DNA from: Candidatus Moraniibacteriota bacterium
GTDB taxonomy: Bacteria > Patescibacteriota > Minisyncoccia > Moranbacterales > UBA1568
NCBI GenBank assembly: GCA_016182385.1
Contig: JACPGV010000011.1
Location: 22,888 to 86,887 of the forward strand
DNA: 64,000 nucleotides
Reading direction: 5' to 3'
Shown here: positions 1,936 through 59,585 of the stretch, piece after piece
How positions within the stretch are numbered: position 1 is the first letter of the stretch
Layout of the letters: every line of letters starts with the position of its first letter
The notes under the pieces: model-generated
What the model was told of the DNA's origin: nothing
The model's database searches: none
The model's input: the letters and a program-made list of their open reading frames with translations, nothing else
Program-made: the position numbers and the translations under genes

Positions 1936-2850
1936 TTATATCTTGAGATAACGACGGATGGCAATCGCGCTCGAGAGAACGCCCAAAGAAATACCCAATA
2001 AAACAAGTCCGCCAAAAAGAACCCAGAAATAATCATAATACAAATGTAAGAAATTCCCCTGCGCTATTGCTCCTTCGGTAAGAGGAGCGATAAAACGAGC
2101 GGCAATAAAGAGGAAAAGCATCGTAACCACCGAAGCAACCAACCCATACAACGCGCCTTCAAAAACAAATGGCATACGCACATAGATATTGGAAGCACCG
2201 ACAAGACGCATAATTTCAAATTCTTGACGATGAGAGTAGATAGTAATGCGAATAGTATTAAACGTAATAAGAATAGCGATAAACACAAACAATGATCCGA
2301 GGAGTATTCCGGCCTTTCGAGTTGCCTGATTGATTCTATCCAATCGATCAAAAATCTTTTTATTCTTGGCATAATTGATGCGACTCACATCATTCTGAAA
2401 TGTCGATCCCTCAATTTGTTGCACGATAAGTGGATAGTCTTCCGGTCGCACTGCTTTGATGACGAGCGAAGCGAGAAGCGGATTCTCCCCAATTTCCTCG
2501 ATGGCTTGCGCAATGACGGGATCATTATTACTTTCAGCAAGAAATTGTTCAAGAGCCTGCTCACGTGATATATATTCCACAGAAACAATCTCTTTCTTAT
2601 AACGACTCAGCTCATTGCGTACCTCCAAAATTTTCTCTTCACTGACATCAGGATTGAAAGAGACGCTGATATTTACTTTTTCTCTCATGTTTTGTAGCAC
2701 CAACTTGGTGGTAACGCCAAGTAAGAAAGAAAGACTGACAATAAATAACGACAAGGTCAAAATACTGATAGTAGCAAACGTCAGCCAACCGTTACGACGG
2801 AAATTTTCCCTCCCCTCTTTAAAAGTGCGCCAAAGCTTGAGTGTTTTCAT
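1936..2850 (-). CDS. ftsX: cell division ABC transporter permease FtsX
   Basis: 304 aa; N-terminal TM, large periplasmic loop and three C-terminal TMs; immediately downstream of ftsE. Confidence 0.85.
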   Translation of the reverse strand: MKTLKLWRTFKEGRENFRRNGWLTFATISILTLSLFIVSLSFLLGVTTKLVLQNMREKVNISVSFNPDVSEEKILEVRNELSRYKKEIVSVEYISREQALEQFLAESNNDPVIAQAIEEIGENPLLASLVIKAVRPEDYPLIVQQIEGSTFQNDVSRINYAKNKKIFDRLDRINQATRKAGILLGSLFVFIAILITFNTIRITIYSHRQEFEIMRLVGASNIYVRMPFVFEGALYGLVASVVTMLFLFIAARFIAPLTEGAIAQGNFLHLYYDYFWVLFGGLVLLGISLGVLSSAIAIRRYLKI

Positions 2851-2863
2851 AAATAAAAAATAT

Positions 2864-3562
2864 CTAATTTAAAGCGTATTTTCCTTTCGTTTGATCGTGA
2901 ACAATTTTTTGATCATTTATAACGATGACGCGCTTGCCAATTTTATCGACGATTCCTTTATTATGAGTAGCCAAAAGCACCGTTGTGCCAAAAGAATTTA
3001 TTTCCAAAAGAAGCTGAATGATTTCATTGGCTGAGACAGGGTCGAGGTTGCCGGTCGGCTCATCGGCAATGATAACTTTTGGACGATGAATGAGCGCGCG
3101 AGCCAGCGAAACACGCTGTTGTTCTCCTCCGGAAAGTTGCCTGGGAAATTTATGCATCTTGTCACCCAGACCGACGATCTCAAGAATTTCCGGTACTTCT
3201 TGGTTGATTTCTTCCGTGCTTTTACCATCCACCTCCAGGGCGTACGCTACATTTTCAAATGCTGTTCGTTGTGGTAATAATTTGAAATCTTGAAAAACCG
3301 TGCCGATATTGCGTCGAAAAAAAGGAAGGTGCTTACGATTGATTTGTCCTATGGAGCGACCATTGAAATATACCTCTCCTGTTGTCGGAATTTCTTCGGC
3401 ATAAATGAGTTTGAGAAGTGTCGACTTGCCGGCGCCGCTTGGTCCGACGATACAAACAAACTCTCCCGGCATGATAGAAAGCGTCACATTTTCCAATACG
3501 GAAATATCCACTGGAAAAATTTTTGTTACGGCATCAAAATGAATAATGGGTGTCGCTGGCAT
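2864..3562 (-). CDS. ftsE: cell division ATP-binding protein FtsE
   Basis: Walker A GPSGAGKST, ABC signature LSGGEQQRVSLARAL, Walker B IIADEPT; 232 aa; forms the ftsEX pair. Confidence 0.9.
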   Translation of the reverse strand: MPATPIIHFDAVTKIFPVDISVLENVTLSIMPGEFVCIVGPSGAGKSTLLKLIYAEEIPTTGEVYFNGRSIGQINRKHLPFFRRNIGTVFQDFKLLPQRTAFENVAYALEVDGKSTEEINQEVPEILEIVGLGDKMHKFPRQLSGGEQQRVSLARALIHRPKVIIADEPTGNLDPVSANEIIQLLLEINSFGTTVLLATHNKGIVDKIGKRVIVINDQKIVHDQTKGKYALN

Positions 3563-20234: not shown

Positions 20235-22007
20235 TTACTCCAAAAAAGCCTTGATTCGCCGCACACCGGCAGACGAAGCTTCTTCCTTTGCAATTTTCAG
20301 CCGTCCAAAGGCACCAATTTCCGCCGTGTTTTTGACGTGCGGGCCACCACACAACTCACGTGAGAATATTGTTTTTCCCGGACCCTCTACCGTATAGACG
20401 GTTACCTTTTCCGGATATTTTTCCCAAAAACTTCCTTCGATACCGGATGCCTTCGCTGTTTTTTTTTCCATTACCTCAGTGACGACATCTGCTTGAGCAT
20501 CGATAGCCGTATTGACATACCTCTCAACACGATCAAGAATATCTCGGGAAACTTTTTCCGGATACGTAAAATCAAAACGTGTTCGTTCTTCGGTAATATT
20601 AGATCCCGCTTGATGCACCGCGCTCCCTAATTCTTTGCGTAGTCCCGCGAGCATCAAATGTGTTGCTGTATGAAAGGCAGTCACCTTCGGACTATGATCC
20701 GCAAGGCCGCCCTTAAACTTTCCCGCGCTTGCCGTTCGTGAAAGATCTTGATGTTTTTTGAATTCTTCGCGAAAGAGAGCCTCCTCAACAGTTTTGCCCC
20801 GCTCATGAGCAAGCTCTTGTGTCATTTCAAGCGGAAACCCATAGGTCGCAAACAAATCAAAGGCATCTTTTCCGGAAAGCGTCCCTTGCTCCAAACGACG
20901 CTCAAATTCTTTCAATCCTTTCGAAAGCGTCGCGCGAAACTTTTCTTCCTCTCGAGAAAGCTCGCTTTTAATTTTTTCCGCGTGTTCACGAACAGATTCA
21001 TAAATATCGATAAATTTCCCTATGAAAAGGTGTCCCACTTCGGCTATCACCGGTTTTTCATAATTCATCTTGTAAAACTCTCGGATGGCACGACGAATAA
21101 GACGGCGTAAAATATATCCCTGATCGACATTTTTTGGCACGACGCCATCAGCAATCATATGTACCGCGGCCCGCGTATGATCCGCGATAATCCGCGCCGA
21201 TCGTTCGTTGTATTTTTCTGTTCCCACCAAAACGCGAATGGTCTCCAAAACATCAGCAAACGCATCCGTCTCATAGACGCTTTTCATTCCACCAAGAGTC
21301 ACGGCCGTTCGCTCAAGTCCCATTCCTGTGTCGACGCACGGCGCTGGAAGCTTTTCGAGTGTTGTTTCATCAACACGATTATACTGCATAAAAACATTAT
21401 TCCAAATCTCCATCCATTGTTTGGGATGAGTTCCCTTGTTTCCTTGCGGAGCACCTTCACCAACCCAATAAAAAATTTCCGTATCCGGTCCGCAGGGACC
21501 AGTTGGTCCCGCTGCCCACCAATTATCTTCGGCAGGAAGATACGCGATACGTTCTTTGGGCATACCCAATGATTCCCACAGAGCCGCCGACTCATCGTCG
21601 CGAGGAGCGTTTTCATCTCCTGAAAAAACCGTCACGGAAATCATAGCCGGATCGAGACCAAGCCATCGCGCGTCAGTCAGAAATTCCCATGACCACGCAA
21701 TAGATTCTTGTTTGAAATAATCTCCAAGCGACCAATTTCCCAACATTTCAAAAAAAGTAAGGTGGGTATCATCACCGACATCATCAATATCCCCCGTACG
21801 AACACATTTCTGCACGTCAACAAGACGCTTCCCCATGGGATGCGGTTTTCCCAAGAGATACGGAACGAGCGGCTGCATACCAGCCGTATTAAAGAGTACT
21901 GACGGATCGTTTTCCGGTACCAACGGCGCCGAAGGAATAACGGCGTGATTTTTACTTTGAAAAAACTCCAAATATTTTTTTCGAATCTCACTCGTGCGCA
22001 TAAACAA
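20235..22007 (-). CDS. alaS: alanine--tRNA ligase, short form lacking the C-terminal C-Ala domain
   Basis: Class II motifs (FFEMLGNWSLGDYFK; GMGLERT), tRNA-recognition and editing domains (HxxxH...CGGPHV); ends at 590 aa, whereas canonical bacterial AlaS is ~870 aa. Confidence 0.9.
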   Translation of the reverse strand: MFMRTSEIRKKYLEFFQSKNHAVIPSAPLVPENDPSVLFNTAGMQPLVPYLLGKPHPMGKRLVDVQKCVRTGDIDDVGDDTHLTFFEMLGNWSLGDYFKQESIAWSWEFLTDARWLGLDPAMISVTVFSGDENAPRDDESAALWESLGMPKERIAYLPAEDNWWAAGPTGPCGPDTEIFYWVGEGAPQGNKGTHPKQWMEIWNNVFMQYNRVDETTLEKLPAPCVDTGMGLERTAVTLGGMKSVYETDAFADVLETIRVLVGTEKYNERSARIIADHTRAAVHMIADGVVPKNVDQGYILRRLIRRAIREFYKMNYEKPVIAEVGHLFIGKFIDIYESVREHAEKIKSELSREEEKFRATLSKGLKEFERRLEQGTLSGKDAFDLFATYGFPLEMTQELAHERGKTVEEALFREEFKKHQDLSRTASAGKFKGGLADHSPKVTAFHTATHLMLAGLRKELGSAVHQAGSNITEERTRFDFTYPEKVSRDILDRVERYVNTAIDAQADVVTEVMEKKTAKASGIEGSFWEKYPEKVTVYTVEGPGKTIFSRELCGGPHVKNTAEIGAFGRLKIAKEEASSAGVRRIKAFLE

Positions 22008-22057: not shown

Positions 22058-22339
22058 TTATAAGCTGTTCATTTGCTTCTTCAATCGGGAGAGCTCCTCA
22101 TCAATAAGTTCTACTTCTCGCGCCATAGAACGCTCCTCCGCTTGTTTTTTTTCCACATCAGCACGCAAATGACCGATTTCCAAATTCATTTTTTTCACAT
22201 CACCTTCTACAAGAACACGTTTCCTCTCAAGACGACTTCTGTCTGATTGGAGAGAAAACATCTGCGCCTGCAAACGACGCATACTGGTTTGTCGTCCCGC
22301 AGACTGATCTTTATCTTCTTCGCTATGCATATTCGTCAT
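22058..22339 (-). CDS. hypothetical coiled-coil protein (93 aa)
   Basis: Heptad-rich, highly charged (LERKRVLVEGDVKKMNLEIGHLRADVEKKQAEE...); no TM; located between alaS and the large membrane protein downstream of ftsA. Confidence 0.35.
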   Translation of the reverse strand: MTNMHSEEDKDQSAGRQTSMRRLQAQMFSLQSDRSRLERKRVLVEGDVKKMNLEIGHLRADVEKKQAEERSMAREVELIDEELSRLKKQMNSL

Positions 22340-22393: not shown

Positions 22394-24328
22394 TTACTTT
22401 TCTTCTTCACCTTTTTCAACAATAAGCACGATACGTTTTTCGGCATCGGGAATACTTTGAACAAAGAGGTCCGGTCGAAAGATTACATTTATTTTCTTTA
22501 CGGATGGAAACTGAGACAAGACATTTTCTATATCACGAATACTTGCTCCCGCGAGTGCGCCTCGCAGGGCCTGCTCATCTATTTCCGATTCCAATGTGAG
22601 AAGCGCTCGGGCTCGTAGCCGTAATGTATTTTCTGAAAAATTAGGCACAGAATCACCATACGTAACCGCAGAAGAAACCACCTTGAAGGAAACGTTTTCG
22701 ATAGTTTTCTTCTGTTCCGTTTCTATTTTCTCTTGGAGAGCTTTCTCGGAAAAAACGAATGCTTTTACGCGAAACGTATTTCTGTATTCAAACGAGGAAG
22801 CTGCTGTTCCGATTTGTAAGGGCGAAACAAGCACAGTCGGAACAATTTCAATATGTTCATCAAGAATTTTTTCTCCCGGCAAAAGCTCGCCACGTATTTC
22901 TTCCAAAAAGGCGTTCCTCGCCGATTCTTTGGCATCACGTTCGGCGGTTTCAAGATCAACTTTAGCAATAACCGCCACGTCTGTTCCACCGCTGCCACCT
23001 CCAAGCATAGCCTTGGAAGATTTTGCTGAAAAAGCCTCATACTTCGGCCCTCCCTTGAATCCAGGAATAGTGAATGTCGAAGGAGTAATATTATATTCCT
23101 CTCCGGCTTGATCGGCAATAACTTCCGCCTCAATCATTCCAGCCTCTTTTTTTCCGTTGCTAGTAACCATGCCGGGAACAGTTACTCCCTTTACCAAACG
23201 ATAAATCTTCCCATCGCCGGTCTCCAAACGAGTTGTCGCCACGAGAGATTGCGGTTCGGCACTATAATTATTGGAAAGAATCACCGTACCAGAAGCTTTT
23301 TGATTATTTCCCCCGCTTTTTCCGGTCGTCGGAACAGTCAACGCGAGCTCTTTTTCTTTTTCAAAAACACGCGCCGGTATGACCTTTTCACCAGTTGTCA
23401 TATCAGTCCTTCCTTCAAACTCCATATCGACATTCTGCATAATACGATAGGGAGTAACGTGAATTTCCGCTTTGGGAAGAAAAAGATACACCAAAACGCC
23501 TATCGTCGAAAGAAGAGAAATACCTCCCAGAATAAAGAAAATATAATGAGCTTTCTTTCCGGCAAGAGAAGGAACTTGTTCTTCCGGCATCTTTGGTTGC
23601 TCTTTTTTCTTTTCCGGTGATGCCGGCTGATAGGTATTACTATAAAAATTTCTCAAACGTTCATCGCGGCTTATCGATGTCGAGGGAACACGTGTCGGCG
23701 ACGACTCCGTCAAAGCTTGAGCAGAAGGAAGTGGTTTTTCTACGACACGCGCTTGTCTCTTCACCTGGCTTCCCATCATATCGTCTACTCGTTGAGAGTT
23801 CAAACTGGTAAGTTTTTTTGGAGTAGCATCACGCACCCGCACTGTTTTTGGCGCTGTCATAGACAACGTCTCCACTCCTTTTTCTTCCGGTGCCTTTGTC
23901 ACTACTGTCTGAGTAGTCGTCGGACCATTATAAAAATCCGCACTTCCAATTCCCTCGGAACGCAATCCAATATTACCAGAGACCGTTTCTTCTTCACCGC
24001 TATCATGAGTGGAAGTTATTTCGGGTGATATATCCTTCGACGATAATTCGAGATGAGACGTTTTTTGAGCAAAATCTTCAGAATAATTTTCTGTTTCGAT
24101 ACCCGCCTTCTCAGCCAAAAGACGTCCGGCCTCATCTTGTGTCACCAGAATGATCTTTTTCCCCAACTTTTGAGCCTCGCGTTGTAGTAAACGTAAATTG
24201 ATAATACTTTGCAAAACCAAAGCACGCTTGGGAAAAACAAAAATATTTTCCTGCGATGATGATTTTCTCATCCGGCTAATAACCGAAATAATTTCCTCAT
24301 CGGCTTCAATATAAAAAGTTTGTTCCAT
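22394..24328 (-). CDS. hypothetical bitopic membrane protein: N-terminal cytoplasmic domain, S/T/P/E-rich disordered linker, one TM, large extracytoplasmic domain
   Basis: 644 aa. Structured N-terminal ~85 aa (FYIEADEEIISVISRMRKS...ILVTQDEAGRLLAEKAGI), ~170 aa low-complexity linker, TM AHYIFFILGGISLLSTIGVLVYLFL, then a ~360 aa beta-rich domain; immediately downstream of ftsA. Confidence 0.5.
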   Translation of the reverse strand: MEQTFYIEADEEIISVISRMRKSSSQENIFVFPKRALVLQSIINLRLLQREAQKLGKKIILVTQDEAGRLLAEKAGIETENYSEDFAQKTSHLELSSKDISPEITSTHDSGEEETVSGNIGLRSEGIGSADFYNGPTTTQTVVTKAPEEKGVETLSMTAPKTVRVRDATPKKLTSLNSQRVDDMMGSQVKRQARVVEKPLPSAQALTESSPTRVPSTSISRDERLRNFYSNTYQPASPEKKKEQPKMPEEQVPSLAGKKAHYIFFILGGISLLSTIGVLVYLFLPKAEIHVTPYRIMQNVDMEFEGRTDMTTGEKVIPARVFEKEKELALTVPTTGKSGGNNQKASGTVILSNNYSAEPQSLVATTRLETGDGKIYRLVKGVTVPGMVTSNGKKEAGMIEAEVIADQAGEEYNITPSTFTIPGFKGGPKYEAFSAKSSKAMLGGGSGGTDVAVIAKVDLETAERDAKESARNAFLEEIRGELLPGEKILDEHIEIVPTVLVSPLQIGTAASSFEYRNTFRVKAFVFSEKALQEKIETEQKKTIENVSFKVVSSAVTYGDSVPNFSENTLRLRARALLTLESEIDEQALRGALAGASIRDIENVLSQFPSVKKINVIFRPDLFVQSIPDAEKRIVLIVEKGEEEK

Positions 24329-24342
24329 AAACGTTCTTTTGG

Positions 24343-25611
24343 TTATTGTTTTTCTACCGTTTCCATACTGCGACGTAATATACTAGAAAGCATTTTTTCT
24401 TCCTCAAGAGAATCAAGAAGTGCCAAATGAGCTAGTCCGATAGGTGTAATATCCTGAGGATTGCCCAATTCTCCGGTAGTATCAATCATACGCGCCACAT
24501 CTTTCGGTTGAAGAAATCCCACCTGTGGTGCTTTGGCAAATGGAAGATTCTTCGTCCACTCTTTGGAAAGGAGTGCCTGCTTGATGCCCGGAAGCGCCGA
24601 TCCTCCACCACAAAGAAAAATTCGGGATGGCAAAAGATCAGTTTCTGCGAATTCAATAAGAGAAAGTTCTACGCCACCAAGCCAAATACGACAATCATCA
24701 GCGTATAAAGTAGCGATACGAGCATTGTCTTCATCGTGCAATCGACCATGGGCATAATCGATTTTCATTTGTTCAGCCACCTCAAAACTCAATCCAAACT
24801 CTTGCGCCAGACGTTTCGTAAAAGCGCGTCCACCAAGCGCAAACATTTTTGTTCCCTCAAGACCGCCATTACGCACGACGGCAATATCCGTTGTTCCTCC
24901 ACCGATATCGATAAAAATAGCACTGAAATCAAGCATGTCATCCACTTCGATAGAACGAGCAACCGCGTATGGTTCTGCCGCGATAGACAAGAGATCGAGA
25001 TCAAGCTCGTCAGCAATTTTTTGTAACGCCCCCAAATGAATCATCGGCGCATACGCGTTAAACACGCTCATGGAAACATCTCTCCCCTGAAAATTTACGG
25101 GATTCAGAACATGATACCCATCAATGCGAACATCAACAACAGCGGCATTGATCAATTTGACATCAATATCATCTTGTCCGGTCTCCCAGGCAAGTTGTCG
25201 TTTGATTCGCTGGTAAGCCTTCTCCTGAACTTTCTGAATAATCATCCGGAGTTCCGGAATAGCGATACGTATTTCCGAATTGACGCGCTCATAGTGTACC
25301 GTCGTCGTCGTTCCTTTCACCAACTCTCCCGCGATACCGATGATACTTTTTTGAACGCGCTTTACATGAGCTCTTTCTTTCGCCAATTGGATAGCTTCTC
25401 GTGCCGATTCTATAACTCCGCCGATGTCCGTTACGGCGCCGCTTTGCATATTCCCCGATTTCTGAGCGACACGCCCGACACCTATAATCATGCCTTTTTT
25501 CTGTTCATGATCAACACGAAACACCAGTGCCTTGACCACTTCCGTTCCGATATCCAAAGCGAGCATGAGATCGGTATCACGACCGAAACGCATCTTTGAA
25601 AAAAGTCCCAT
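24343..25611 (-). CDS. ftsA: cell division protein FtsA (actin-like ATPase)
   Basis: Phosphate-1 ALDIGTEVVKALVF, phosphate-2 FIDIGGGTTDIAV, adenosine motif LCGGGSALPG; 422 aa with an amphipathic C-terminal helix. The PilM alternative is less likely given the length and C-terminus. Confidence 0.7.
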   Translation of the reverse strand: MGLFSKMRFGRDTDLMLALDIGTEVVKALVFRVDHEQKKGMIIGVGRVAQKSGNMQSGAVTDIGGVIESAREAIQLAKERAHVKRVQKSIIGIAGELVKGTTTTVHYERVNSEIRIAIPELRMIIQKVQEKAYQRIKRQLAWETGQDDIDVKLINAAVVDVRIDGYHVLNPVNFQGRDVSMSVFNAYAPMIHLGALQKIADELDLDLLSIAAEPYAVARSIEVDDMLDFSAIFIDIGGGTTDIAVVRNGGLEGTKMFALGGRAFTKRLAQEFGLSFEVAEQMKIDYAHGRLHDEDNARIATLYADDCRIWLGGVELSLIEFAETDLLPSRIFLCGGGSALPGIKQALLSKEWTKNLPFAKAPQVGFLQPKDVARMIDTTGELGNPQDITPIGLAHLALLDSLEEEKMLSSILRRSMETVEKQ

Positions 25612-28030: not shown

Positions 28031-29083
28031 TCATTTTGATTGCAAAGCCTCTATGCCGGGCAATTGTTTACCGCTTAAATATTCAAGCATCGCTCCACCG
28101 CCAGAAGAAACAAAACTTACTTTCGCCATAACACCGGCCTCTTCCAATACGGCGAGCGACTCACCGCCCCCAATCACCACAAAAGCACCACTCTCCAAAA
28201 TGGCATGCAAAATGGCGTCCGTCCCGATATCATACGGCTTTTCTTCGAACTTTCCCATCGGTCCGTTCCACACGATAGTTTTCGCCTGCTTGATAATCTG
28301 TGTGTAATAGGCGATGGTAGTTGGTCCGATATCCAACCGTTGCGGCGAATTAAAATCCTGCGGCAGAAGCACTTTGGAAGAAAATGCTATTTTTTGATCC
28401 AGTGCCTCATTGGCAATTTTTCCACCAACTAAAATACAATCATAATTTTCCTCCAACGATCGAATAAGTGGCAACTTTGTTTCTATTTTCGCCCCTCCAA
28501 TGATCGCGACCGCCGGACGTTCCGGTCGAAAACGAGCATTATCAAGCTCTCGCATTTCTTTTTGTAAACAAAAACCACCGGCGGCAGGCAAAAGTTTCGG
28601 CACACCAACTATGGAAGCGTGCGCCCGATGACTGACGCTAAACGCCTCATTCACATACACCGTAAAAGGTTCGGCCAATTGTTTGGCAAAAAGAAGATCG
28701 TTTTCTTCCTCTCCCGAATAAAAACGAACGTTCTCCAAAAGAAGTATCTCGTTTCCAGAAAGACGCTCCAAGGATTCCCCGACGGACGATCCGACGCAAT
28801 CGGACACAAACACCACTTTTCTTTCCAAAGCATTTTCTATTGATCGCATCAGGCGCTCCGTGGAAAATTGAAGATCTTTTTTCCCCTCCGGTCTTCCAAA
28901 ATGAGTAAGCAGAGCGATCTTTACACCAGAAAAACCGGCAATATATTCGATCGTCTCTTTAACGATCGAAAAACGAAAATGCTCCTGTACCGCATCAATG
29001 TTATTAAGCTCAACATTAAAGTCGACTCGCACCAGTACCCGTTGATTCTCAAAAGATATTTCTTCCACACCCTTGATAATCAT
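28031..29083 (-). CDS. pgk: phosphoglycerate kinase
   Basis: RVLVRVDFNV N-terminal motif, HFGRPEGKK, hinge and C-terminal GGGAMLEYLSGKQLPGIEAL. Start trimmed to MIIKGVEE (ATG at 29083); the track's 29197 start overlaps mraY. Confidence 0.9.
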   Translation of the reverse strand: MIIKGVEEISFENQRVLVRVDFNVELNNIDAVQEHFRFSIVKETIEYIAGFSGVKIALLTHFGRPEGKKDLQFSTERLMRSIENALERKVVFVSDCVGSSVGESLERLSGNEILLLENVRFYSGEEENDLLFAKQLAEPFTVYVNEAFSVSHRAHASIVGVPKLLPAAGGFCLQKEMRELDNARFRPERPAVAIIGGAKIETKLPLIRSLEENYDCILVGGKIANEALDQKIAFSSKVLLPQDFNSPQRLDIGPTTIAYYTQIIKQAKTIVWNGPMGKFEEKPYDIGTDAILHAILESGAFVVIGGGESLAVLEEAGVMAKVSFVSSGGGAMLEYLSGKQLPGIEALQSK

Positions 29084-29100
29084 AGTCGTAAAATAAATAT

Positions 29101-30210
29101 TTATTTTCCCATTCCCAAAATACCGATCATGACGCCGATAAGAGCGGTAAGAGACGTAAAAATCCATGCGCGCATGACAATTTTTGGTTCGGGCCATCCC
29201 TTTGCCTCAAAATGATGATGCAGCGGCGCCGCCAAGAAAATTTTTCTTCCAAAAAAACGCTTGCTCAAGAGTTGCAAAGCGGCACTTCCTGATTCCAAAA
29301 TATACACAAAAACAATAAGAAATAATACGAGCGCGGAGTTGGTCAGCATCGCCACGACACCAAGCGTGGTTCCAAGCGATATAGCTCCCGTATCACCCAT
29401 AAAAAATCGGGCCGGATAGATGTTAAACCACAAAAATGCCAACAGCGCTCCCGAGACCGCGGCACAAAACGATGCCAAGTCCATTCTATTCTGCACGAAA
29501 GCAATGAGCGCGAAAGAGCTGAAAGCGATAAGCAATACGCCACCGTTTAATCCATCGAGACCATCCGTCTCATTGGAAGAAATTGCGGCAAATAAAATGA
29601 CAAAAATAAAAAGCGGGATATACCACCAACCGATAGAAAAATCACCCACCGCCGGAATATGCATCTGATCCCAACCAAGCTTTTCATAGAACCACCATGC
29701 GCCGGCGCCGGCAATAACGAACAACCACCAAAAACGGAAAGCAAAACGCATCCCACCGCCCTTGTTGCTTCCACAACCGCGAACACTCATATAGTCATCG
29801 AGCATACCCAAGATACCGGCCATGACCAAAACAAAAAGTGGCAACCATACCTGCGAACGCTTGAAAAAATCCAAACGAGCGATAAAATTCGTATTGGTCC
29901 ATTCAGCGATAAACGGAAACACATAGTGGGAAAGCAGGACCAGTATGAGAACCGATGCCCAGACGATGACTCCACCCATCGTGGGCGTCCCGGCTTTACA
30001 CGCGTGCAATTTATTCACAAAAGTCAATTGTTGTCCGTTCACATCGTTCTTTTTTATCTTTATACCGAATCGATATTTATAGAGAATATGCGTCCAAAGC
30101 GGTGTCAAAAGAAACGCGAGCAAAAAAGAACACAATCCGGTAGCCAATACCTTGAGAATATTCATAATAAACGGTATGTGCTGAATCTGAGCGATCTGAA
30201 TATTTTCCAT
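29101..30210 (-). CDS. mraY: phospho-N-acetylmuramoyl-pentapeptide transferase MraY
   Basis: 10 predicted TMs; the LDDYMSVRG and NETDGLDGL motifs of the MraY/WecA (GT4 polyprenyl-phosphate sugar-phosphate transferase) family; 369 aa. Confidence 0.8.
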   Translation of the reverse strand: MENIQIAQIQHIPFIMNILKVLATGLCSFLLAFLLTPLWTHILYKYRFGIKIKKNDVNGQQLTFVNKLHACKAGTPTMGGVIVWASVLILVLLSHYVFPFIAEWTNTNFIARLDFFKRSQVWLPLFVLVMAGILGMLDDYMSVRGCGSNKGGGMRFAFRFWWLFVIAGAGAWWFYEKLGWDQMHIPAVGDFSIGWWYIPLFIFVILFAAISSNETDGLDGLNGGVLLIAFSSFALIAFVQNRMDLASFCAAVSGALLAFLWFNIYPARFFMGDTGAISLGTTLGVVAMLTNSALVLFLIVFVYILESGSAALQLLSKRFFGRKIFLAAPLHHHFEAKGWPEPKIVMRAWIFTSLTALIGVMIGILGMGK

Positions 30211-39361: not shown

Positions 39362-40159
39362 TTACTTTTCAAAACTCTGTAAATATTCTGGAAGTTTCAA
39401 AATCCATTTCGCTTGTTCCGGATAAAATAAAAACCTCTCGACATCTTTTGCTGCCTGTTCCAGATTGCTCTTTCTCGCCTGCTGTGTCAAAAATTCTACC
39501 AACATATGACGATTCGTAATATCAAGCTTCTTTTCTTTAAAAAGAGCATAGTTCGGCTCCAAATCCTTTTGACTCAAGAACCATACCAAATCATAAAAAT
39601 CGCGTCCTTTTTGATATGGACGAAAAATAATAGCAACGACTTTTTGAGCGAAAAGTGTTTCCAGAGAATTGACCAACAAAGGAAAACGCTCATTAAAACT
39701 ATCAGAGAATTTCGTTTCCGTGCGCGCTTTCTTGAACGGATTGAAATCAATTTCAAATTTGATAAGCATCTTTTCATTTTCTTGAACATTCAGACCGAAT
39801 TCCCATAAAACATCCTTGAATCTGAAATAAATAGTATGGATATTTTCAGTCGTTTTCGTACGCGCATCGACTTGAAATCCCTGCATATCCAACTTGTTTC
39901 TGATATCAGCCATCAATTCCTCGATATGAAATCCTTCTTTTTTTACCAGATCAAAATACAAATCTTCCGAAAAACGGTTGATTCCATATGCAAAACGAAG
40001 ACACGCACCACCCATGAATGAAATGCTGTCATTGAACTTGCTCAAAGAAAGTGCTTTGAGAATCTGCGTCTGCAAATATTCGAGTAAAATATTGCGATCC
40101 TGCCACGGAATATTTCTCTCTTCTGCGTATTTTTTAAAAAAGTCTTTACTCGGTAGCAT
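39362..40159 (-). CDS. AbiEii/AbiGii-family nucleotidyltransferase toxin (type IV TA toxin, DUF1814)
   Basis: GGACLRFAYGINRFSEDLYFD... matches the nucleotidyltransferase-fold core of AbiEii. Start set at MLPSKDFF (ATG at 40159), 8 nt after the AbiEi stop; the track's 40258 start overlaps AbiEi. Confidence 0.75.
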   Translation of the reverse strand: MLPSKDFFKKYAEERNIPWQDRNILLEYLQTQILKALSLSKFNDSISFMGGACLRFAYGINRFSEDLYFDLVKKEGFHIEELMADIRNKLDMQGFQVDARTKTTENIHTIYFRFKDVLWEFGLNVQENEKMLIKFEIDFNPFKKARTETKFSDSFNERFPLLVNSLETLFAQKVVAIIFRPYQKGRDFYDLVWFLSQKDLEPNYALFKEKKLDITNRHMLVEFLTQQARKSNLEQAAKDVERFLFYPEQAKWILKLPEYLQSFEK

Positions 40160-40769
40160 AATATTTGATAAAACTTTTAGTAAGAAGCGAAACCTTTTTA
40201 TTTTGAAAGGCCTCGGCAAATCCCAGTAATTTTTTCGTATCAAAAACAAAGTCCTCATTGAAACGATATCCTCGGAATTGTTCCGAATCTCCGTTTAAAA
40301 TATTGCGTTTCAAATAAAAAAAATCCACCAGTGCCTTTTCTGGCAATGCCATATTAAAGGAAATTTTCCCGTCCTTTTTCGTTTCATATCCGCCAAATGC
40401 GCTCTTTTTGATTTTCTGATAACTGAAACGTCCCAATTTCGTATCAAACTCTTTCGTTTTCCTTGTCGTCACCGAAGTCACCGTAAACACAGCCTCCGGA
40501 ATAATTCCATAAAAACTCAACGCCTTTTCCATGCTCACATAGGATGGTTGATACATTTTTGTCGCAAACCACACAGGATCCGCATTTTTTGCCTCCTCAG
40601 CGACAACATACATACCTCTTCTCAACATAATAAGATGACCCTTGTTAACCCAATTTTTCAGATTAACAAGCATGGTACTTGTGAACGCACCACCCAGAAC
40701 AAGCCTCAGTTCTTTCGTTTCAAAAAGCGGCAATTCTTCAACTTTTTTTCTAAATTCAAAATAATTCAT
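40146..40769 (-). CDS. AbiEi-family antitoxin/transcriptional regulator (type IV TA antitoxin)
   Basis: N-terminal wHTH-like region and the conserved PSYVSMEKALSFYGIIPE motif of AbiEi antitoxins; 207 aa; immediately upstream of AbiEii. Confidence 0.75.
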   Translation of the reverse strand: MNYFEFRKKVEELPLFETKELRLVLGGAFTSTMLVNLKNWVNKGHLIMLRRGMYVVAEEAKNADPVWFATKMYQPSYVSMEKALSFYGIIPEAVFTVTSVTTRKTKEFDTKLGRFSYQKIKKSAFGGYETKKDGKISFNMALPEKALVDFFYLKRNILNGDSEQFRGYRFNEDFVFDTKKLLGFAEAFQNKKVSLLTKSFIKYYATE

Positions 40770-41279: not shown

Positions 41280-43460
41280 TTACCGGTTAGATTTATATTG
41301 CCACCTCTTTCTCCACTCACTGGCAAGCAAAATAGAAAGAACAAAAAGACTGACTCCGGTAATCCACATACCGACATATAAGAGACGTGCCGGCAGGTAG
41401 TACAGGGAAACGTTTCCTCCCTTTCGATCACGATCTAATCTCCAGGCATTGGCATGCTGAATGCTGTTGTCCCGAGTCAATGAGACTTTGTTTCCAGCTA
41501 GATCAACATATTCCGCTCTCCAGAGAGAATCGTAGCGCTCATTCAAGAAAATAGTGGCGTCCTGCTTCATATCCACCACCGGTACCATAATTTCTCGTGG
41601 ATTTTTTCTCTGGTATGCCAGTTCTTCTATATTTTCACGTAGCGCCTGTACAGACTGCGAAAGTCCTTCTATTTTCATCGGAACAAATGGGGCATTGATC
41701 CCTACAAATACGTATGGAAACACCCGCTTCTCTTCCAAAGTATAGAGAGTAAAAAAATCATTCTCTTTTACTTTCTGCAACGCTCCAGTTCTTTCAAGGT
41801 ATTCCTTAGCTCCTTCAAATTCTTCTTGATTCTCCTTACGAGTATCCTTATGAAAAAACACATACTCAACCCCTAGAAGACCGTAGAGATCAGTTATCCA
41901 CTGCGGGTCATGCTGACTCTCAAACTCCGTAGCAAACATCCAATGAGGAATGTAGTAGTCATACAGCTCTACGTATTTTTTACTATACAAACGATACGCG
42001 ATATCGGGACCATTGACCTTCCAAGTAGGAAAATTCACTCTCCCGACGCTCGAACCAGGAGCGTACGGCAACATTGCAATCTTACTGTCCTTTTTACTTG
42101 ACTCAATGACTGAAGCGACATCATAATATGCCTGAGGAACCTCTACGAGAGCACTATACTTAGCCTTGGTATAGTCCTTGGCTTTCTGACCAGAAAGAGC
42201 AAAGCTCAATTTTGTCTGAAGGCCGCCTACGTAAAAAGGAAGCGCCAGAATAATCGTCATGAGAAGAAATGAGAGCATAAGGAAACGAGCATACTTCTTT
42301 CCTTCAAATGATTGAAGGAAAAGTAGAAGAAGTCCTGAAAGAAGAAATGGAGTTATCGTAGCCAGCTTATCCCAGCCACGCAAAGTATTGAATCCTGGCA
42401 GAGTGAATAGAAATTCGTTCATAGACTCAAATGGGAAACGCACTCGTGCCACCAGAGCCATGAAAATAAATGTGAGCATGAAAAAGGCACCGAATATCTT
42501 TTGGTCCCTCGAACTCCTTTTCCGAAAGAATCCATACAACGCCAAGAAAAAAGGAATGAAAGCTATGAAGGCTATCACTCTCTTTGCTTGAGAAAAATCT
42601 GGGTATGGAAAATTCATTGGATAATAGCGTTCCTGCTCACTCGTAGGAAGTAATCGAATCGTATCCGAAAAAGCATTCGACGTCTCCCTTAATCGCTCTG
42701 AAAGATCAACAAATTCTGAAGTATAAACTGCTTGTACGCCACCTCGTAGCTGAGGTATCTGTGGCAACAACCAGTAGGTGTTCATGAGAGCCGCTCCAAA
42801 AACAAGCATCCCTATTTTAAGCAAAGTCTGACGATCAAAAGGGATGGAACGGAAAAGAAACAGTGCGAGCGTAAGAAAAAAGAATAAGATACCAAGAGAC
42901 AGAGCAAAAGCCGGATTTCCAAAACTCGTCGAAGCAAGAAAAGCAACCCCCACAAAACCGTAGCTAAAAATTCTCTGAGATGATTCGAGAGCTTTGATAT
43001 ACATCCCTACCAGAAGAGGAATGAATATGTACAAGACCTGATACGAACTATACCCCCAAGCAGCAGTGAAGACATAGAGTGTATAGAGATTCGTAGCGTA
43101 AAAAAGTGCGGAAAGTGACCGTGTCAGTCCAGATGACCTCGAGAACACCAATGCACAAAATGACAGAAACGAAAAAAATGAACCAAGAAGGAATATTCCG
43201 ACATACCAAGAAAGTTGAGCCGTATCACTAATACCTAGTTGGTCAATAATGTAAAAGACGCCATAAAATAATGAAGCGCTGCCGAAAGCATCGTAATGAA
43301 AACGAACAAAATTTTCGGTCATGTTAATAGCCTGAATAACATCCCCGCCAAGCAAAATATGTCTCGCAGGAAAGATATTCATGAGAGTACATAAAACAAG
43401 AAGAAATACTCCTATTGTTTCCCATCGGTACCGAAGTAGAATGTGTCGTACTCTCTCCAT
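41280..43460 (-). CDS. YfhO-like GT-C-fold membrane glycosyltransferase (paralog 1)
   Basis: 726 aa. ~13 N-terminal TMs with an acidic GGDV motif in the first extracytoplasmic loop, a ~300 aa extracytoplasmic domain and a single C-terminal TM (LLYVGMWITGVSLFVLSILL); this is the topology of YfhO/ArnT-type GT-C enzymes. Confidence 0.5.
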   Translation of the reverse strand: MERVRHILLRYRWETIGVFLLVLCTLMNIFPARHILLGGDVIQAINMTENFVRFHYDAFGSASLFYGVFYIIDQLGISDTAQLSWYVGIFLLGSFFSFLSFCALVFSRSSGLTRSLSALFYATNLYTLYVFTAAWGYSSYQVLYIFIPLLVGMYIKALESSQRIFSYGFVGVAFLASTSFGNPAFALSLGILFFFLTLALFLFRSIPFDRQTLLKIGMLVFGAALMNTYWLLPQIPQLRGGVQAVYTSEFVDLSERLRETSNAFSDTIRLLPTSEQERYYPMNFPYPDFSQAKRVIAFIAFIPFFLALYGFFRKRSSRDQKIFGAFFMLTFIFMALVARVRFPFESMNEFLFTLPGFNTLRGWDKLATITPFLLSGLLLLFLQSFEGKKYARFLMLSFLLMTIILALPFYVGGLQTKLSFALSGQKAKDYTKAKYSALVEVPQAYYDVASVIESSKKDSKIAMLPYAPGSSVGRVNFPTWKVNGPDIAYRLYSKKYVELYDYYIPHWMFATEFESQHDPQWITDLYGLLGVEYVFFHKDTRKENQEEFEGAKEYLERTGALQKVKENDFFTLYTLEEKRVFPYVFVGINAPFVPMKIEGLSQSVQALRENIEELAYQRKNPREIMVPVVDMKQDATIFLNERYDSLWRAEYVDLAGNKVSLTRDNSIQHANAWRLDRDRKGGNVSLYYLPARLLYVGMWITGVSLFVLSILLASEWRKRWQYKSNR

Positions 43461-43468
43461 AACATTAC

Positions 43469-44998
43469 TTATCGTAATTTTGAAACACTGGCATGAACAG
43501 AAAACTCATTGAACCCGAAAAACCCTGATGATTTCTCCTCACCTACGTAAGTTGCTTTGACGTAGACTGTTTTCGCTACTCTGTTCCCTGGTAACGTCAA
43601 CAAAAACCGTACCCGCCCAGATGATTCCTCTACAAATGGAATTTCCTGCCAATGTTCCTTATCCAGAGAATACTCCAATTGAATTTCTGACAAATCATCG
43701 CCGTCCTGTTGTGCATCCAAAGCAAAAAATTCGAAGGGACGCCCTGTTTCAAATCGATACATGAGATACTCCCCTGTCTTCTGACTTCCTGTGATAATCT
43801 TCCTCTCCCTGTCGAAGATGATACTTTGACTCGCCTCGTAGAGATTATCATAATCAACTGGGTCGTGTCTCAATTGGAAAGCATAGAGAAGCTTCTTCCC
43901 TAAATCCTCCAACTTCGCTCCATCAGGAAAGCTATCCGCCCCATTCAACCGTGCCCGTTGGCCAATATGCACAAAAAGATCTCCCTTTTCCTTAAATTCT
44001 TTCGGGTCAACCGTCTTCTCCAATTCGCCTAAAGAAAAGAAGTTTTCTGGGTCTTTATCCTTTGGGCCAACAAAATTAAGAGCATACCAGCCGCCCTGTT
44101 TCAAAGGAAAAGAGAAAGGGAGTAGGAAATTACCAGAAAAAATTCTCATACCATTCAAAGCGTCCAATACGAAGGGTATCCTTTGAAGAGGAGCTGATTC
44201 TTTTTCTTTCGTTACACTATTGTAACGAAAGAGTTCAAAAGCATATTCTTGTCTCCCGCCACCATCTATTTTTCCTGAAAATTCGAGCGACCGAATAAAA
44301 TCACCGTCAGCCTGAAAAAGCCATTCTTTTTTCTGAGAGCTTTTATCTATATTATTTACTGAAAAAAGCTCTCGATGACTAGTCTCCGAGATACCATAAA
44401 AAGTAGGCATGAGACTGACTGCTTCAAAGCGAGTCTGCACTTCAAGCGGCGTGATATCAAAAGATTTTATGAAAACTTCTGGATCATACCATTCCATTTC
44501 TGAAACCTCAGAATTCTTTTTCAATCGAATAATAAGGTCCTGATACCTCCCAGGCGTGGAAAAGACTACTTCACGATATTGACCCTTTTCATCTGGTTCA
44601 AAAGTCCATGAGCTGATGGGCAGTATTTCATTTAGGGAAGATCGAGCCAATACCTCGACCTGTTCTTTATCCTTCGTACTCACATGAATGCCCAGGCGAA
44701 AAAAATCATTCGTTCGAGATTCGAAAAAATTCTCATAGATTTTCTCTGGGATTTTTTTAGTAAGATCGGGTCGAAAAACAAAGGCTGATTTTTCCTTCTT
44801 TGATTCAGGCTTCTTCACTACCTGATCAGGTGCTACAGCCTGATGCCAGAGGTAGGCGGTAAGAAAAATAAAAAGAATGAAGAAATAGCGAAAGTATCTC
44901 CCCAAAAAGACTCCCATTTTCCTAATCACTCCGTGAATTTCTTTCATGTTCTTCATTTTGGATATTTTATCAGTTCTGAGATGATTTGTCATGGTCAC
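43469..44998 (-). CDS. hypothetical membrane-anchored extracytoplasmic protein (509 aa)
   Basis: Single N-terminal TM (YFFILFIFLTAYLW), then a ~450 aa soluble domain; sandwiched between, and overlapping, the two YfhO-like paralogs. Confidence 0.45.
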   Translation of the reverse strand: MTMTNHLRTDKISKMKNMKEIHGVIRKMGVFLGRYFRYFFILFIFLTAYLWHQAVAPDQVVKKPESKKEKSAFVFRPDLTKKIPEKIYENFFESRTNDFFRLGIHVSTKDKEQVEVLARSSLNEILPISSWTFEPDEKGQYREVVFSTPGRYQDLIIRLKKNSEVSEMEWYDPEVFIKSFDITPLEVQTRFEAVSLMPTFYGISETSHRELFSVNNIDKSSQKKEWLFQADGDFIRSLEFSGKIDGGGRQEYAFELFRYNSVTKEKESAPLQRIPFVLDALNGMRIFSGNFLLPFSFPLKQGGWYALNFVGPKDKDPENFFSLGELEKTVDPKEFKEKGDLFVHIGQRARLNGADSFPDGAKLEDLGKKLLYAFQLRHDPVDYDNLYEASQSIIFDRERKIITGSQKTGEYLMYRFETGRPFEFFALDAQQDGDDLSEIQLEYSLDKEHWQEIPFVEESSGRVRFLLTLPGNRVAKTVYVKATYVGEEKSSGFFGFNEFSVHASVSKLR

Positions 44999-47471
44999 TT
45001 TTTTGCCTTTTTTCCTTTTTTAGAGCTCTTTTTACCAAAAGCAGCGAGTACCAAAGGAGACCGAGACCGGAAATAATTATCCCAATATATGAGACCCTCT
45101 GAGGCCAAAATTCTATAATCACTTCGACATCCTGAGTTTCATCTTTATTCTTCAGACAACTCTCAGACTGTTCCTGGCATATAGCATCTATATCAAGAAC
45201 CCAGGCGTTGGCGTAACCATTGACCACAAGTTGTCTATTCTTAGTATCGAGAGGTTCTTGAAACCACGTTTCAGAAAAGCGAGCCTCTACGAGATTATCA
45301 TTTTGAACGGTGTTAAAGAACTTTTTTGAGACAAAATCGATAGAAAATTTCTCGATAAAATCAATCTTCCCTCGATAGTCATCCCATTTTTTGTGAACAA
45401 TACTTTTTTCTTTTCCGTCTCCCAGCTCCGTGACACTCCCCTCGTTTACGAGCCTCACAAGTTCATCGCTATCAGCCTGAAAATATTTATTCTTTTCCAA
45501 TATCTTGTATTCCTTCAGTCGAGAGAGGAGTGACCCACGATCCTGATAAGAACTCTTTTTTTCCGCCAAGTATATGTTCCAATCTTTATGATACTGTTCG
45601 CTCAAAACCAGCACGACGTTCCCCTGTGCACCGTGCAAACGTACTCGATACTGCGTCGGATTGATTTTCTTGTACTCAACACTCGCCCCGGAGAAAATTC
45701 CTCCTCTGTCTATATCAGCATTTATCTCATTATCCTGAAACGAAACTTTCCGCTCAGCATGACGAATAGGCGAGTTATCAAGAAGTATTTGCGTTAATGG
45801 TGCGTCATCAAAGGTACCAATACTTTCGGCCGTATACAACTGTGGTAAAAATTCGTTTCGATCGACATACTGAATAGAGAGAAAACCCTCTTGAAAAGCC
45901 GGTACTGTATTCTTCACATAATAAACAATTTTGTTCATCAAGGAAGCGTCTTCGAATATGAAACCAACTGCATGATTCGAGAGACTCCCGAGAACCTTGT
46001 CATACCCCAAGTTATAGTTTGTGTACAAGAAGTTGTAGATAATTGGCCCAAAGAATCCCCACTGGGTATTGAGGTACGTCAGATCACTGTTGGGATAGAA
46101 CGTCCGGACGTTCATTTTTTGGTAATCAATAAACTCGCGCACCTTGTAATACTCATTTGGGATATGAAAACCACGTTGCTGAATGTTCGTATATTGGTTG
46201 ATCCCGTTGAAATTTTTATAGTACTCCCCGTTCCAGTATGGGTATCCGACATAGATCGTCACAACAAGTATAAGAGAGCTAAAAAAGAACCGTTTTCTTG
46301 GAATTTGTTCGACAAAGAAAAACAAAAGGAGCGCATAAAATACCGAGAGGAAAAAAACTGCTCCCGCTGTCGTTCGCAAAAAGGCTAACAAAGGCACACT
46401 CGCAACAAAGTGCTCATACATCTGCCCAAAAGGCTTATTTGGTCCCGCAGCAAAAAAGAGATAGATGACAAGAAGAAGCCAAACGATGATCTCGTCTCTC
46501 TTATCTACATTGTGTTCGGAGTGAATAATAAGCAGTCGTGCAAAGATGATAAAGACAAAGAAATAGCTCAGGATCAAAATGAGAGCACTCGAATTATAGG
46601 AAAGAACATCCAGATGATTCAGAAAGATAGAATCTTGATGAAGCTTCAATATCTTATCCATGGTATCCACGCCGAAATTCATCATCTTGCCAATATCCTT
46701 GTACCCCGACTTCACTTTTACCCCATAGTCGATGGGATCATAGTTTAAGGTGAAATTTGCTAAAGGCAAAAATAAATAGGCCGAAAGAACAAAGGCGAGT
46801 GAAAATTTTATGAACACCTTTCGCAGCTCTACACCAGTAATTTTTTGAAGACTCCAATTAGCAAAGAAAATAATTGCTGAGATGAGAAAAAGATGAAAAA
46901 GGTACTTCGGGTTCGGTAGATCTAGAGAGCAAAAAGCCAGTATCACATTTAACCAAAGTGCCGTTCCGATGGTGACGTCTTTCTCCTTGACGATCCTAAA
47001 AATGAAATAGATGAACCAAGGAGTAAAAGCGTACACAAATATGTAATGGTAGGCATTGAGAAGAGCTGGGGAGAGGAGATAGAACACGATCGGCACCAAG
47101 AGTTCTAGTCGTTGCGCCTTTGGGGAAAAAAGCTGAGCCAGTTTGTAAATACCAAATCCCGCAATCAACGTTAGAAAAAATAATAAGACTGCAGAAATAA
47201 AAAGGATATTACCCGTAAAAAGCTCGGCCACCCAGTACATGATGTAAAAAACATAGTAGTTCACGGCGAAGTATTGGCCATTTTTCATCTCTATCCACTG
47301 ATAGAGATATTTTTCCAGCCCCTCACTGTTGAATGGTATGAGTACATCGCCCCCGATAGAAAGACGCCCCCAAGTATAAAAAGCTGGTAACAGTGCTAAC
47401 CCAAAAATAACCAGTTCGGGAGAGTACCGAACGAGCAACCTCAAAAATGTCTTCCAAATCTCTCGGTTCAT
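44970..47471 (-). CDS. YfhO-like GT-C-fold membrane glycosyltransferase (paralog 2)
   Basis: 833 aa; same architecture as 41280..43460. The N-termini are alignable (LLVRYSPELVIFGLALLPAFYTWGRLSIGGDV vs ILLRYRWETIGVFLLVLCTLMNIFPARHILLGGDV); C-terminal TM IGIIISGLGLLWYSLLLV. Confidence 0.5.
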   Translation of the reverse strand: MNREIWKTFLRLLVRYSPELVIFGLALLPAFYTWGRLSIGGDVLIPFNSEGLEKYLYQWIEMKNGQYFAVNYYVFYIMYWVAELFTGNILFISAVLLFFLTLIAGFGIYKLAQLFSPKAQRLELLVPIVFYLLSPALLNAYHYIFVYAFTPWFIYFIFRIVKEKDVTIGTALWLNVILAFCSLDLPNPKYLFHLFLISAIIFFANWSLQKITGVELRKVFIKFSLAFVLSAYLFLPLANFTLNYDPIDYGVKVKSGYKDIGKMMNFGVDTMDKILKLHQDSIFLNHLDVLSYNSSALILILSYFFVFIIFARLLIIHSEHNVDKRDEIIVWLLLVIYLFFAAGPNKPFGQMYEHFVASVPLLAFLRTTAGAVFFLSVFYALLLFFFVEQIPRKRFFFSSLILVVTIYVGYPYWNGEYYKNFNGINQYTNIQQRGFHIPNEYYKVREFIDYQKMNVRTFYPNSDLTYLNTQWGFFGPIIYNFLYTNYNLGYDKVLGSLSNHAVGFIFEDASLMNKIVYYVKNTVPAFQEGFLSIQYVDRNEFLPQLYTAESIGTFDDAPLTQILLDNSPIRHAERKVSFQDNEINADIDRGGIFSGASVEYKKINPTQYRVRLHGAQGNVVLVLSEQYHKDWNIYLAEKKSSYQDRGSLLSRLKEYKILEKNKYFQADSDELVRLVNEGSVTELGDGKEKSIVHKKWDDYRGKIDFIEKFSIDFVSKKFFNTVQNDNLVEARFSETWFQEPLDTKNRQLVVNGYANAWVLDIDAICQEQSESCLKNKDETQDVEVIIEFWPQRVSYIGIIISGLGLLWYSLLLVKRALKKEKRQKSDHDKSSQN

Positions 47472-49425: not shown

Positions 49426-49439
49426 ATTCTCTCGACTAT

Positions 49440-50075
49440 TTATTTGCTATATATCGCCACAATCTGACCACCAAACAATATTCTTCTCGTTAAGAAATTC
49501 ATCTTGAAATGAAAGATGTACGGAGTAAACATTTCCTTCTTAGAAAGACCTACTCTTCTCAAGAAAAAATCCATCGTGTAGGGAGTAAACAGCATACGAT
49601 GTGTCGGATCTACTTCGCCGGTAAAGTTCTTGCTGCCCAAAAAACGGGTTAAGCTATTGGCATTAGGTGTGGTCACAATAAGCAAGCCACCCTTTTTCAG
49701 ATGTTTTTGAAGTATTTGTTCCAGTGGAACAAAATTCGTTAAATGCTCTACAACATCAAACATCGTGATGACATCGAAAGACTCTTCCAAAGGAAATATT
49801 CCTTGATTCAAATCCATTTGGAAAAATCGATCTTTGATATGGGGAAACTTTTCCTGACACTGCTTTACGGCATACTCAGAATAATCACAGCCATAGCACG
49901 TGCTGGTTCGCTCAATATTCCCTATAAACTCACCAGTGGCACAGCCAACGTCCAATACTTTCTTCTCTTTCAACGAGACTCCCAGAGTAGCTAAAAAAGA
50001 AAGATAAGCCGGGAACACTTCACCGCTTTTGGTCGTCTCTCTAGTAAAATATTCTTGGCTATACATAGTGTTCAT
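49440..50075 (-). CDS. class I SAM-dependent methyltransferase
   Basis: Motif I VLDVGCATGEF and post-I/II motifs (DVITMFDVVEHL); 211 aa. Confidence 0.75.
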   Translation of the reverse strand: MNTMYSQEYFTRETTKSGEVFPAYLSFLATLGVSLKEKKVLDVGCATGEFIGNIERTSTCYGCDYSEYAVKQCQEKFPHIKDRFFQMDLNQGIFPLEESFDVITMFDVVEHLTNFVPLEQILQKHLKKGGLLIVTTPNANSLTRFLGSKNFTGEVDPTHRMLFTPYTMDFFLRRVGLSKKEMFTPYIFHFKMNFLTRRILFGGQIVAIYSK

Positions 50076-51159: not shown

Positions 51160-51182
51160 CTACGTATGCCCTTTCGTTGTAA

Positions 51183-51923: not shown

Positions 51924-51934
51924 AATATTATTAC

Positions 51935-52915: not shown

Positions 52916-52916
52916 A

Positions 52917-54056: not shown

Positions 54057-54060
54057 ATAA

Positions 54061-59572: not shown

Positions 59573-59585
59573 ATTGAATTTGATG

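Follow-up and report, generated by a model that had tools for sequence, protein, structure and literature searches.

A conserved gene pair for an FtsA-family actin-like protein and a bitopic protein in Parcubacteria, a candidate coupler of actin and envelope

The window analysed here is a 64,000-nt stretch of a Candidatus Moranbacteria metagenome-assembled genome (NCBI assembly GCA_016182385.1, contig JACPGV010000011.1, positions 22,888 to 86,887), from the Parcubacteria of the Candidate Phyla Radiation (CPR). Two adjacent genes on its minus strand are the subject of this study. The first encodes a non-canonical actin-like ATPase of the FtsA family with 422 amino acids (aa; 24343..25611), and the second encodes a bitopic protein of 644 aa (22394..24328) that is identical to NCBI HYV45_03790. 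A gene for a soluble, putatively coiled-coil protein of 93 aa (22058..22339) follows on the same strand. The intergenic gaps measure 14 nt between the first two genes and 54 nt between the second and third, and neither gap contains a convincing terminator. All three are part of a longer co-oriented run on the minus strand, namely scpA, scpB, a D,D-carboxypeptidase gene, mraY, pgk, eno, a PfkB kinase gene, the three genes described above, alaS, and rplU. The neighbours of the pair are housekeeping or envelope genes. In the window, scpAB, the D,D-carboxypeptidase gene, and mraY lie upstream, and other lineages have a ribosomal/rpoA cluster.

A reading of this DNA from the sequence alone had stated that the FtsA-like gene is followed by the 644-aa gene instead of ftsZ, and this description holds. 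The tubulin signature occurs in no open reading frame (ORF) of the window, and the Pfam Tubulin/FtsZ family has no match among the 44 window ORFs of at least 93 aa that were scanned, which include nearly all ORFs of at least 180 aa. A profile built from four FtsZ sequences gave zero matches in the window and 88 related loci, 1.47 Mb in total. On contigs of the same organism, ftsZ was not found in the 10 kb before or the approximately 7 kb after the window. By motif and profile, it never lies within 10 kb of the pair in the 88 related loci. A second FtsA-like ORF was likewise not seen in the 1.47 Mb of related loci.

The two proteins and their folds

Sequence, profile, and fold all place the 422-aa protein in the FtsA family, with PilM as the next-closest. 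The Pfam FtsA model matches with 63.8 bits (cut-off 31.8), and weaker matches are found to PilM_2 (32.3 bits, cut-off 27, residues 213-348 only) and MreB (29.4 bits). The best sequence match in the PDB is the FtsA structure 7q6f (E 2e-13), compared with 1e-6 for PilM. When the structural model was searched with Foldseek, the top 18 matches were all FtsA (E 3e-22 to 4e-16), followed by PilM and then by EutJ and MreB-like proteins. The top structural match was 7q6i, in which Vibrio maritimus FtsA is bound to residues 1-29 of FtsN. The motifs of the ASKHA fold are invariant in the family: LALDIGTE (phosphate-1), DIGGGTTD (phosphate-2), and LCGGGS (adenosine). In the model, a strand-helix-strand-strand insert occupies residues 99-189, the site of the SHS2/1C subdomain in FtsA and PilM, with a predicted local distance difference test score (pLDDT) of approximately 65-80. 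This region aligns with FtsA 7q6f, and the Pfam scan found no match to SHS2_FTSA in the protein. A basic C-terminal tail (EEKMLSSILRRSM; EEKxLxxILRRxxxxx) is kept in all lineages and is predicted as a helix at low confidence; it could be a membrane-targeting helix.

The earlier reading had called this protein FtsA, which is correct for the family but not for the canonical protein. The equivalog model TIGR01174 scores 106.8 bits against a cut-off of 175.85 and matches model positions 2-260 of 371, and a distant orthologue reaches only 91.1 bits. Five FtsZ-adjacent FtsA proteins from low-GC metagenome contigs pass the same cut-off easily, with 228-368 bits. For calibration, 120 low-GC ftsZ loci from metagenomes were collected, none of which could be assigned to Parcubacteria. 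FtsA adjoins ftsZ in 58 of them, and all 58 of these proteins score 15-74 bits on the profile of the 422-aa family, on which its own orthologues reach approximately 680-800 bits. Because of the TIGR01174 shortfall, the low scores of FtsZ-adjacent FtsA proteins on the family profile, and the fact that no orthologue lies within 10 kb of ftsZ, the protein is not a canonical FtsA. On the PilM model TIGR01175, the protein is also below the cut-off (27.1 bits against 133).

Databases variously call the orthologues "hypothetical protein", "FtsA", "FtsA domain-containing", or "PilM"; IMG uses FtsA and NCBI names some of them PilM. In the complete, long-read-derived genome CP064994.1 (L055:8718-9982), the FtsA-like ORF is found in two overlapping pieces. 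Since the gene is conserved elsewhere, the split is probably an assembly frameshift and not a pseudogene. Two low-GC (31-35%) metagenome contigs in the set (L188:2173-5984 and L192:3751-5538) encode FtsZ with an unusual N-terminal G-box (GIGGSGKNALNHM). The L188 contig has an insertion of two genes, including a transposase-like one, between ftsZ and ftsA, and the latter encodes a short FtsA of 387 aa that is above the TIGR01174 cut-off (240.8 bits).

The 644-aa protein had been described from its sequence as a folded cytoplasmic head, a disordered linker, one transmembrane (TM) segment, and an outside domain. An AlphaFold2 model built on a 36-sequence alignment and a hydropathy analysis both agree with this anatomy. 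The head (residues 1-90; 24059..24328) is a confident beta-alpha-beta-alpha-beta-alpha-beta fold (pLDDT approximately 90) with the invariant residues D10-E11-E12, Q40, N44, and R50-E51. The cytoplasmic linker (residues 91-256; 23561..24058) is disordered, with a pLDDT below 50 from residue 93 to 256, and S (12.8%), T (10.4%), E (9.8%), and P (8.5%) are abundant in it. Conservation of its motifs IGSSDFY, LRVRNASPEK.TSLNS.R, and REERLKNFY is limited to Moranbacteria; in other lineages the linker is acidic or K-rich. The single TM helix (residues 257-283; 23480..23560) is modelled at residues 258-282, and the 19-residue hydropathy windows above threshold start at residues 260-269. The K-rich sequence before this helix indicates a topology with the N-terminus inside and the C-terminus outside. 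Across all lineages the head, TM helix, and outside domain are conserved, and the linker is not.

The extracytoplasmic domain (residues 284-644 and the stop codon; 22394..23479) is modelled with confidence from residue 286 to 644. It consists of a long three-stranded sheet, a beta-barrel (residues approximately 355-440, with the motifs PQxLVATTRF and IPGFKGxxKY), a long helix, and a C-terminal alpha/beta module. This fold is that of the baseplate wedge proteins of phages and contractile injection systems (Baseplate J) and of the GlxA barrel. Sequence matches in the same direction are weak. The PHROG_6 family "baseplate wedge subunit" gives a partial match to residues 343-421 (E 2.7e-4), PF21110 "GlxA beta barrel" is found in seven of the 36 family members and in many distant ones, and PF04865 is recorded on three of 120 homologues. 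The Pfam scan of the window protein returned no PF04865 match and nothing at the gathering threshold (PIN_4 was sub-threshold at 17.5 bits), and no NCBIfam or PDB sequence match was obtained. In databases the family is named "hypothetical protein". One distant homologue (P0394) carries the JGI name "septum formation topological specificity factor MinE", the only division-related name in the family, which presumably reflects a spurious match of a small domain to the head.

The 93-aa protein had been read as a coiled coil. The gene is present, the product has no TM segment, and its hydrophobic residues recur with a heptad-like period of 3.5 residues, but all matches to coiled-coil families are sub-threshold. 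The gene is found downstream of the pair only in Moranbacteria-type genomes and is missing from more distant carriers of the pair.

Linkage, spread, and conservation of the pair

A linkage scan in which each GTDB species was represented by one genome yielded 80 loci, and the linkage of the pair spans these 80 species. An FtsA-like gene immediately precedes the 644-aa homologue in every related locus that has upstream DNA. The two genes are adjacent and on the same strand in all 67 loci in which this could be measured, with a median gap of 20 nt, and therefore the adjacency is not due to chance. It is retained even in carriers with only 26-31% identity, which belong to a Patescibacteria group and to marine Parcubacteria and in which all other neighbours differ. 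The flanks of the pair shift from pfkB on one side and the 93-aa gene with alaS on the other to alaS and infA-rpsM-rpsK-rpsD-rpoA. The gene order in the distant carriers is alaS, the FtsA-like gene, the 644-like gene, and infA-rpsM-rpsK-rpsD-rpoA-rplQ, with murA-mreB approximately 7 kb downstream. In three distant Parcubacteria loci (L086-L088), genes for two to three VirD4/TrwB-like coupling ATPases (TrwB_AAD_bind, zf_Tbcl_2) and for a DUF8128 protein lie upstream, a few kb from alaS and the pair, and this neighbourhood is conserved.

The 644-aa family is large, with 9,172 clusters at 50% identity for E<=1e-3 and 3,346 for E<=1e-30, and it also has members in Portnoybacteria. The top 150 clusters share one architecture of roughly 590-720 aa, except for a few shorter, apparently partial entries. 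The pair is a conserved, operon-like module of Parcubacteria/Paceibacteria-type CPR bacteria. It had been suggested that the 644-aa protein is a lineage-specific division partner of FtsA. The strict linkage supports a dedicated partner, but the lineage is not narrow, since the family extends to Portnoybacteria and marine Parcubacteria, and a role in division would be an extrapolation. No pilN, pilO, pilB, or pilC gene is found nearby, and the 644-aa gene is neither sporadic nor unlinked; on these two grounds, a dedicated partner of the actin-like protein is well supported.

Conservation was determined as the median identity to the window proteins across 83 related loci. The FtsA-like protein is the most conserved (78.7%), followed by PfkB (59%), alanyl-tRNA synthetase (AlaRS, 54%), the 644-aa protein (44%), and the coiled-coil protein (35%). 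Within the 644-aa protein, the head reaches 78%, on par with the actin-like protein, compared with 51% for the outside domain and 25% for the linker. Since AlaRS normally changes more slowly than canonical FtsA, the constraint on the 422-aa protein is more like that on MreB. The 1C/SHS2 insert is among its most conserved parts, and subdomain 2B, to which the FtsZ tail binds in canonical FtsA, shows the lowest conservation of all folded parts.

Pairwise distances among 55 genomes also connect the actin-like protein with the head. The FtsA-like distances correlate with those of the head (r = 0.92), of the ectodomain (0.86), and of PfkB (0.86). With PfkB taken into account, the head retains a partial correlation of 0.69 and the ectodomain one of 0.39. 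This covariation is indirect evidence, supportive of a physical partnership but not decisive.

Other genes of the window

Apart from the FtsA-like gene, the sole clear division-associated genes in the window are ftsX (with the FtsX extracellular domain) and ftsE (1936-3562, minus strand), which adjoin a gene for a peptide chain release factor (PCRF and RF-1 domains). The pgk ORF (28031-29197, minus strand; 388 aa) overlaps the end of mraY (29101-30210, minus strand) by 97 nt. As the PGK proteins of relatives have 350-351 aa, the true start is probably an internal Met. The alaS gene (20235-22007, minus strand) encodes a short AlaRS of 590 aa with tRNA-synt_2c and tRNA_SAD domains and without the C-terminal C-Ala domain. 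Identity values to relatives have a bimodal distribution, with 45-60% for some Moranbacteria and 75-81% for others. This split is missing from the flanking genes, which points to the existence of two alaS lineages or to replacement of the gene within the group.

Three successive large ORFs (726, 509, and 833 aa; 41280-47471, minus strand) have zero Pfam matches. They abut a cluster of approximately 15 kb (47468-61868) that encodes glycosyltransferases, S-adenosylmethionine methyltransferases, sugar epimerases/dehydratases, and a B12-binding radical S-adenosylmethionine enzyme. An AbiEii nucleotidyltransferase toxin (298 aa) lies beside a weak AbiEi-like antitoxin (207 aa) at 39362-40769 (minus strand) and forms with it a type IV toxin-antitoxin/abortive-infection pair.

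Proposed function, alternatives, and significance

With a probability of roughly 55%, we favour the explanation that the pair is a transmembrane coupler between actin and the envelope, most likely in division or envelope morphogenesis. The 422-aa protein probably assembles into polymers on the cytoplasmic side of the membrane, a behaviour that would account for its MreB-like conservation, and the conserved basic C-terminal tail, a predicted helix, may provide the attachment. The 644-aa protein would be its dedicated bitopic partner, with the folded cytoplasmic head docking on the actin-like protein. This docking would most likely take place on the highly conserved 1C/SHS2 side, the side on which FtsN is bound by FtsA and PilN by PilM. 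The flexible linker and the single TM helix would join the head to an outside domain built on an oligomerising baseplate-wedge fold. In this way the module may connect a filament in the cytoplasm with a scaffold that is extracellular or faces the cell wall. A role in division or envelope morphogenesis is suggested by analogy with FtsA-FtsN, MreB-RodZ, and PilM-PilN, and the housekeeping and envelope gene context favours it.

Several points weigh against this explanation. No ftsZ, ftsQ, ftsW, or ftsI gene adjoins the pair, and there is no specific tie to division. MreB is also present in these organisms, and an elongation actin is thus already there. The model of the 422-aa protein is only moderate (mean pLDDT 65), which leaves both the SHS2 insert and the C-terminal helix only loosely resolved. 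The fold of the head is generic, as STAS and TIM-barrel fragments score alike, and the baseplate-wedge fold is not known to act in division. The covariation values come from non-independent pairs, and a correlation can arise between two slowly evolving sequences that do not touch each other.

The comparison with known systems shows what is shared and what is not. Like the pair, FtsA-FtsN (PDB 7q6i) combines an FtsA-fold actin carrying 1C/SHS2 with a bitopic protein that addresses the actin through its cytoplasmic N-terminus and has its C-terminus outside. FtsN, however, uses a short basic peptide and a periplasmic SPOR domain, whereas the partner here has an 85-aa folded head, a long linker, and an ectodomain of the baseplate-wedge fold. 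In addition, ftsN is not encoded next to ftsA, and the actin here is below the FtsA equivalog threshold and never near ftsZ. In MreB-RodZ, a highly conserved actin-like filament is bound by the folded cytoplasmic head, of approximately 85 aa, of a bitopic protein with an extracytoplasmic domain, and the corresponding binding is what we propose for the pair. The RodZ head is a helix-turn-helix, whereas that of the 644-aa protein is a beta/alpha sandwich in the model and has no helix-turn-helix match, for which reason RodZ was rejected as an identity. Moreover, the actin here is of the FtsA type, with the 1C insert, and not of the MreB type, and the organisms have a separate MreB. ZipA is also a bitopic divisome anchor with a long flexible linker, P/Q-rich or S/T/P-rich, between globular domain and membrane, but it has the opposite topology, with a C-terminal cytoplasmic globular domain that binds FtsZ, and it has no ectodomain.

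A specific sub-case of the coupler explanation is that the 422-aa protein is the only FtsA of the lineage, highly derived and moved away from ftsZ. The 644-aa protein would then be a recruited late divisome component, a stand-in for FtsN, FtsQ, or ZipA, in a division that is otherwise driven by FtsZ. We regard this as a serious possibility that nevertheless falls short of even odds. FtsA is the closest family by every measure, the size and the conserved basic C-terminal tail, a predicted helix, are FtsA-like, and IMG uses this name. Relocation of a derived FtsA also agrees with the lack of a second FtsA-like gene in the examined loci and with the fragmentation of the dcw gene cluster for cell division and wall synthesis, seen in the window from mraY standing alone beside pgk. 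On the other side are the two low TIGR01174 scores compared with those of the FtsZ-adjacent proteins, and the poor scores of all 58 FtsZ-adjacent FtsA proteins on the family profile. The poor conservation of 2B and an overall conservation far above that usual for FtsA are also contrary to it. Finally, a published survey reports FtsA as a conserved ftsZ neighbour in CPR bacteria generally (PMC9871819). Together with the TIGR01174 shortfall and the poorly conserved 2B, this survey argues that the 422-aa protein could be a paralogue and not the FtsA of the cell.

If it is a paralogue, the pair may be a third actin machine beside an ordinary FtsZ/FtsA divisome and MreB. An FtsZ-independent FtsA paralogue would be hard-wired through the bitopic protein to an extracellular scaffold of a domesticated phage baseplate-wedge fold. 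Such a scaffold might take the form of a ring or of a surface organelle, with a function in envelope remodelling or in host attachment. We put this version forward only tentatively.

It is improbable that the pair serves a type IV pilus, competence, or secretion machine as an alignment complex of the PilM-PilN kind, with the 644-aa protein as a fused partner of the PilN/PilO type. PilM is the second-best match in structure and sequence, PilM_2 exceeds its cut-off, and NCBI applies the name to some orthologues. Furthermore, the scheme is the same, as in PilM-PilN(-PilO) an ATPase gene of the FtsA/PilM clade lies immediately upstream of the gene for its bitopic partner. However, no pilus genes are found in the window or in the Pfam-annotated related loci, on which ground PilM was rejected, and the PilM models score well below the FtsA models. 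The anatomy and folds of the partner also differ, since the PilM partner presents a short conserved N-terminal peptide right before the TM segment and the 644-aa protein has an 85-aa folded head and a linker of approximately 170 aa in this place.

A transmembrane signalling or anti-sigma-like protein had been offered as an alternative. It is very unlikely that the 644-aa protein is of this kind, with a STAS-like head that acts in partner switching and an adjacency to the actin gene that is only operonic. No sigma-factor, kinase, or phosphatase gene is adjacent and no anti-sigma or STAS domain was matched, and the anti-sigma identity was rejected. The view that the 644-aa gene was left behind by a prophage or a contractile injection system, and sits beside the actin gene by happenstance, draws on the shared fold with Baseplate J/gp6/Mu gp47 wedge proteins and the GlxA beta-barrel domain (PF04865, PF21110, PHROG_6), on weak sequence similarity, and on the few homologues with PF04865, but is effectively refuted: wedge proteins are soluble phage-tail parts that lack a cytoplasmic head and TM helix, whereas the 644-aa protein is membrane-anchored and extracytoplasmic and holds a fixed place among housekeeping genes in at least 80 species and thousands of clusters, with unremarkable GC content and no tail, sheath, tube, baseplate, or injection-system genes around the pair in any locus.

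Our search of an open-access library found no description of either gene or of the pair. The coupling of an actin-like ATPase to a bitopic protein is already known, and the coupler logic is common to FtsA-FtsN, MreB-RodZ, and PilM-PilN. New here are a partner family whose parts are unlike those of all three and its unexpected ectodomain of the baseplate-wedge fold. The pair is among the most conserved non-translational genes of its neighbourhood and is represented by thousands of sequence clusters. A word of caution applies to metabolic reconstructions of CPR bacteria, in which the label "FtsA" may not mean an FtsA that tethers FtsZ. The CPR, or Patescibacteria, account for a large share of bacterial diversity, and how their tiny cells divide, take shape, and anchor their envelope is almost unknown. 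If the two proteins bind, the pair would clearly exemplify how a core cellular machine can reuse a phage baseplate fold. It would also provide a testable entry into the cell biology of these bacteria, in which an actin-like filament is linked across the membrane to an outside scaffold.

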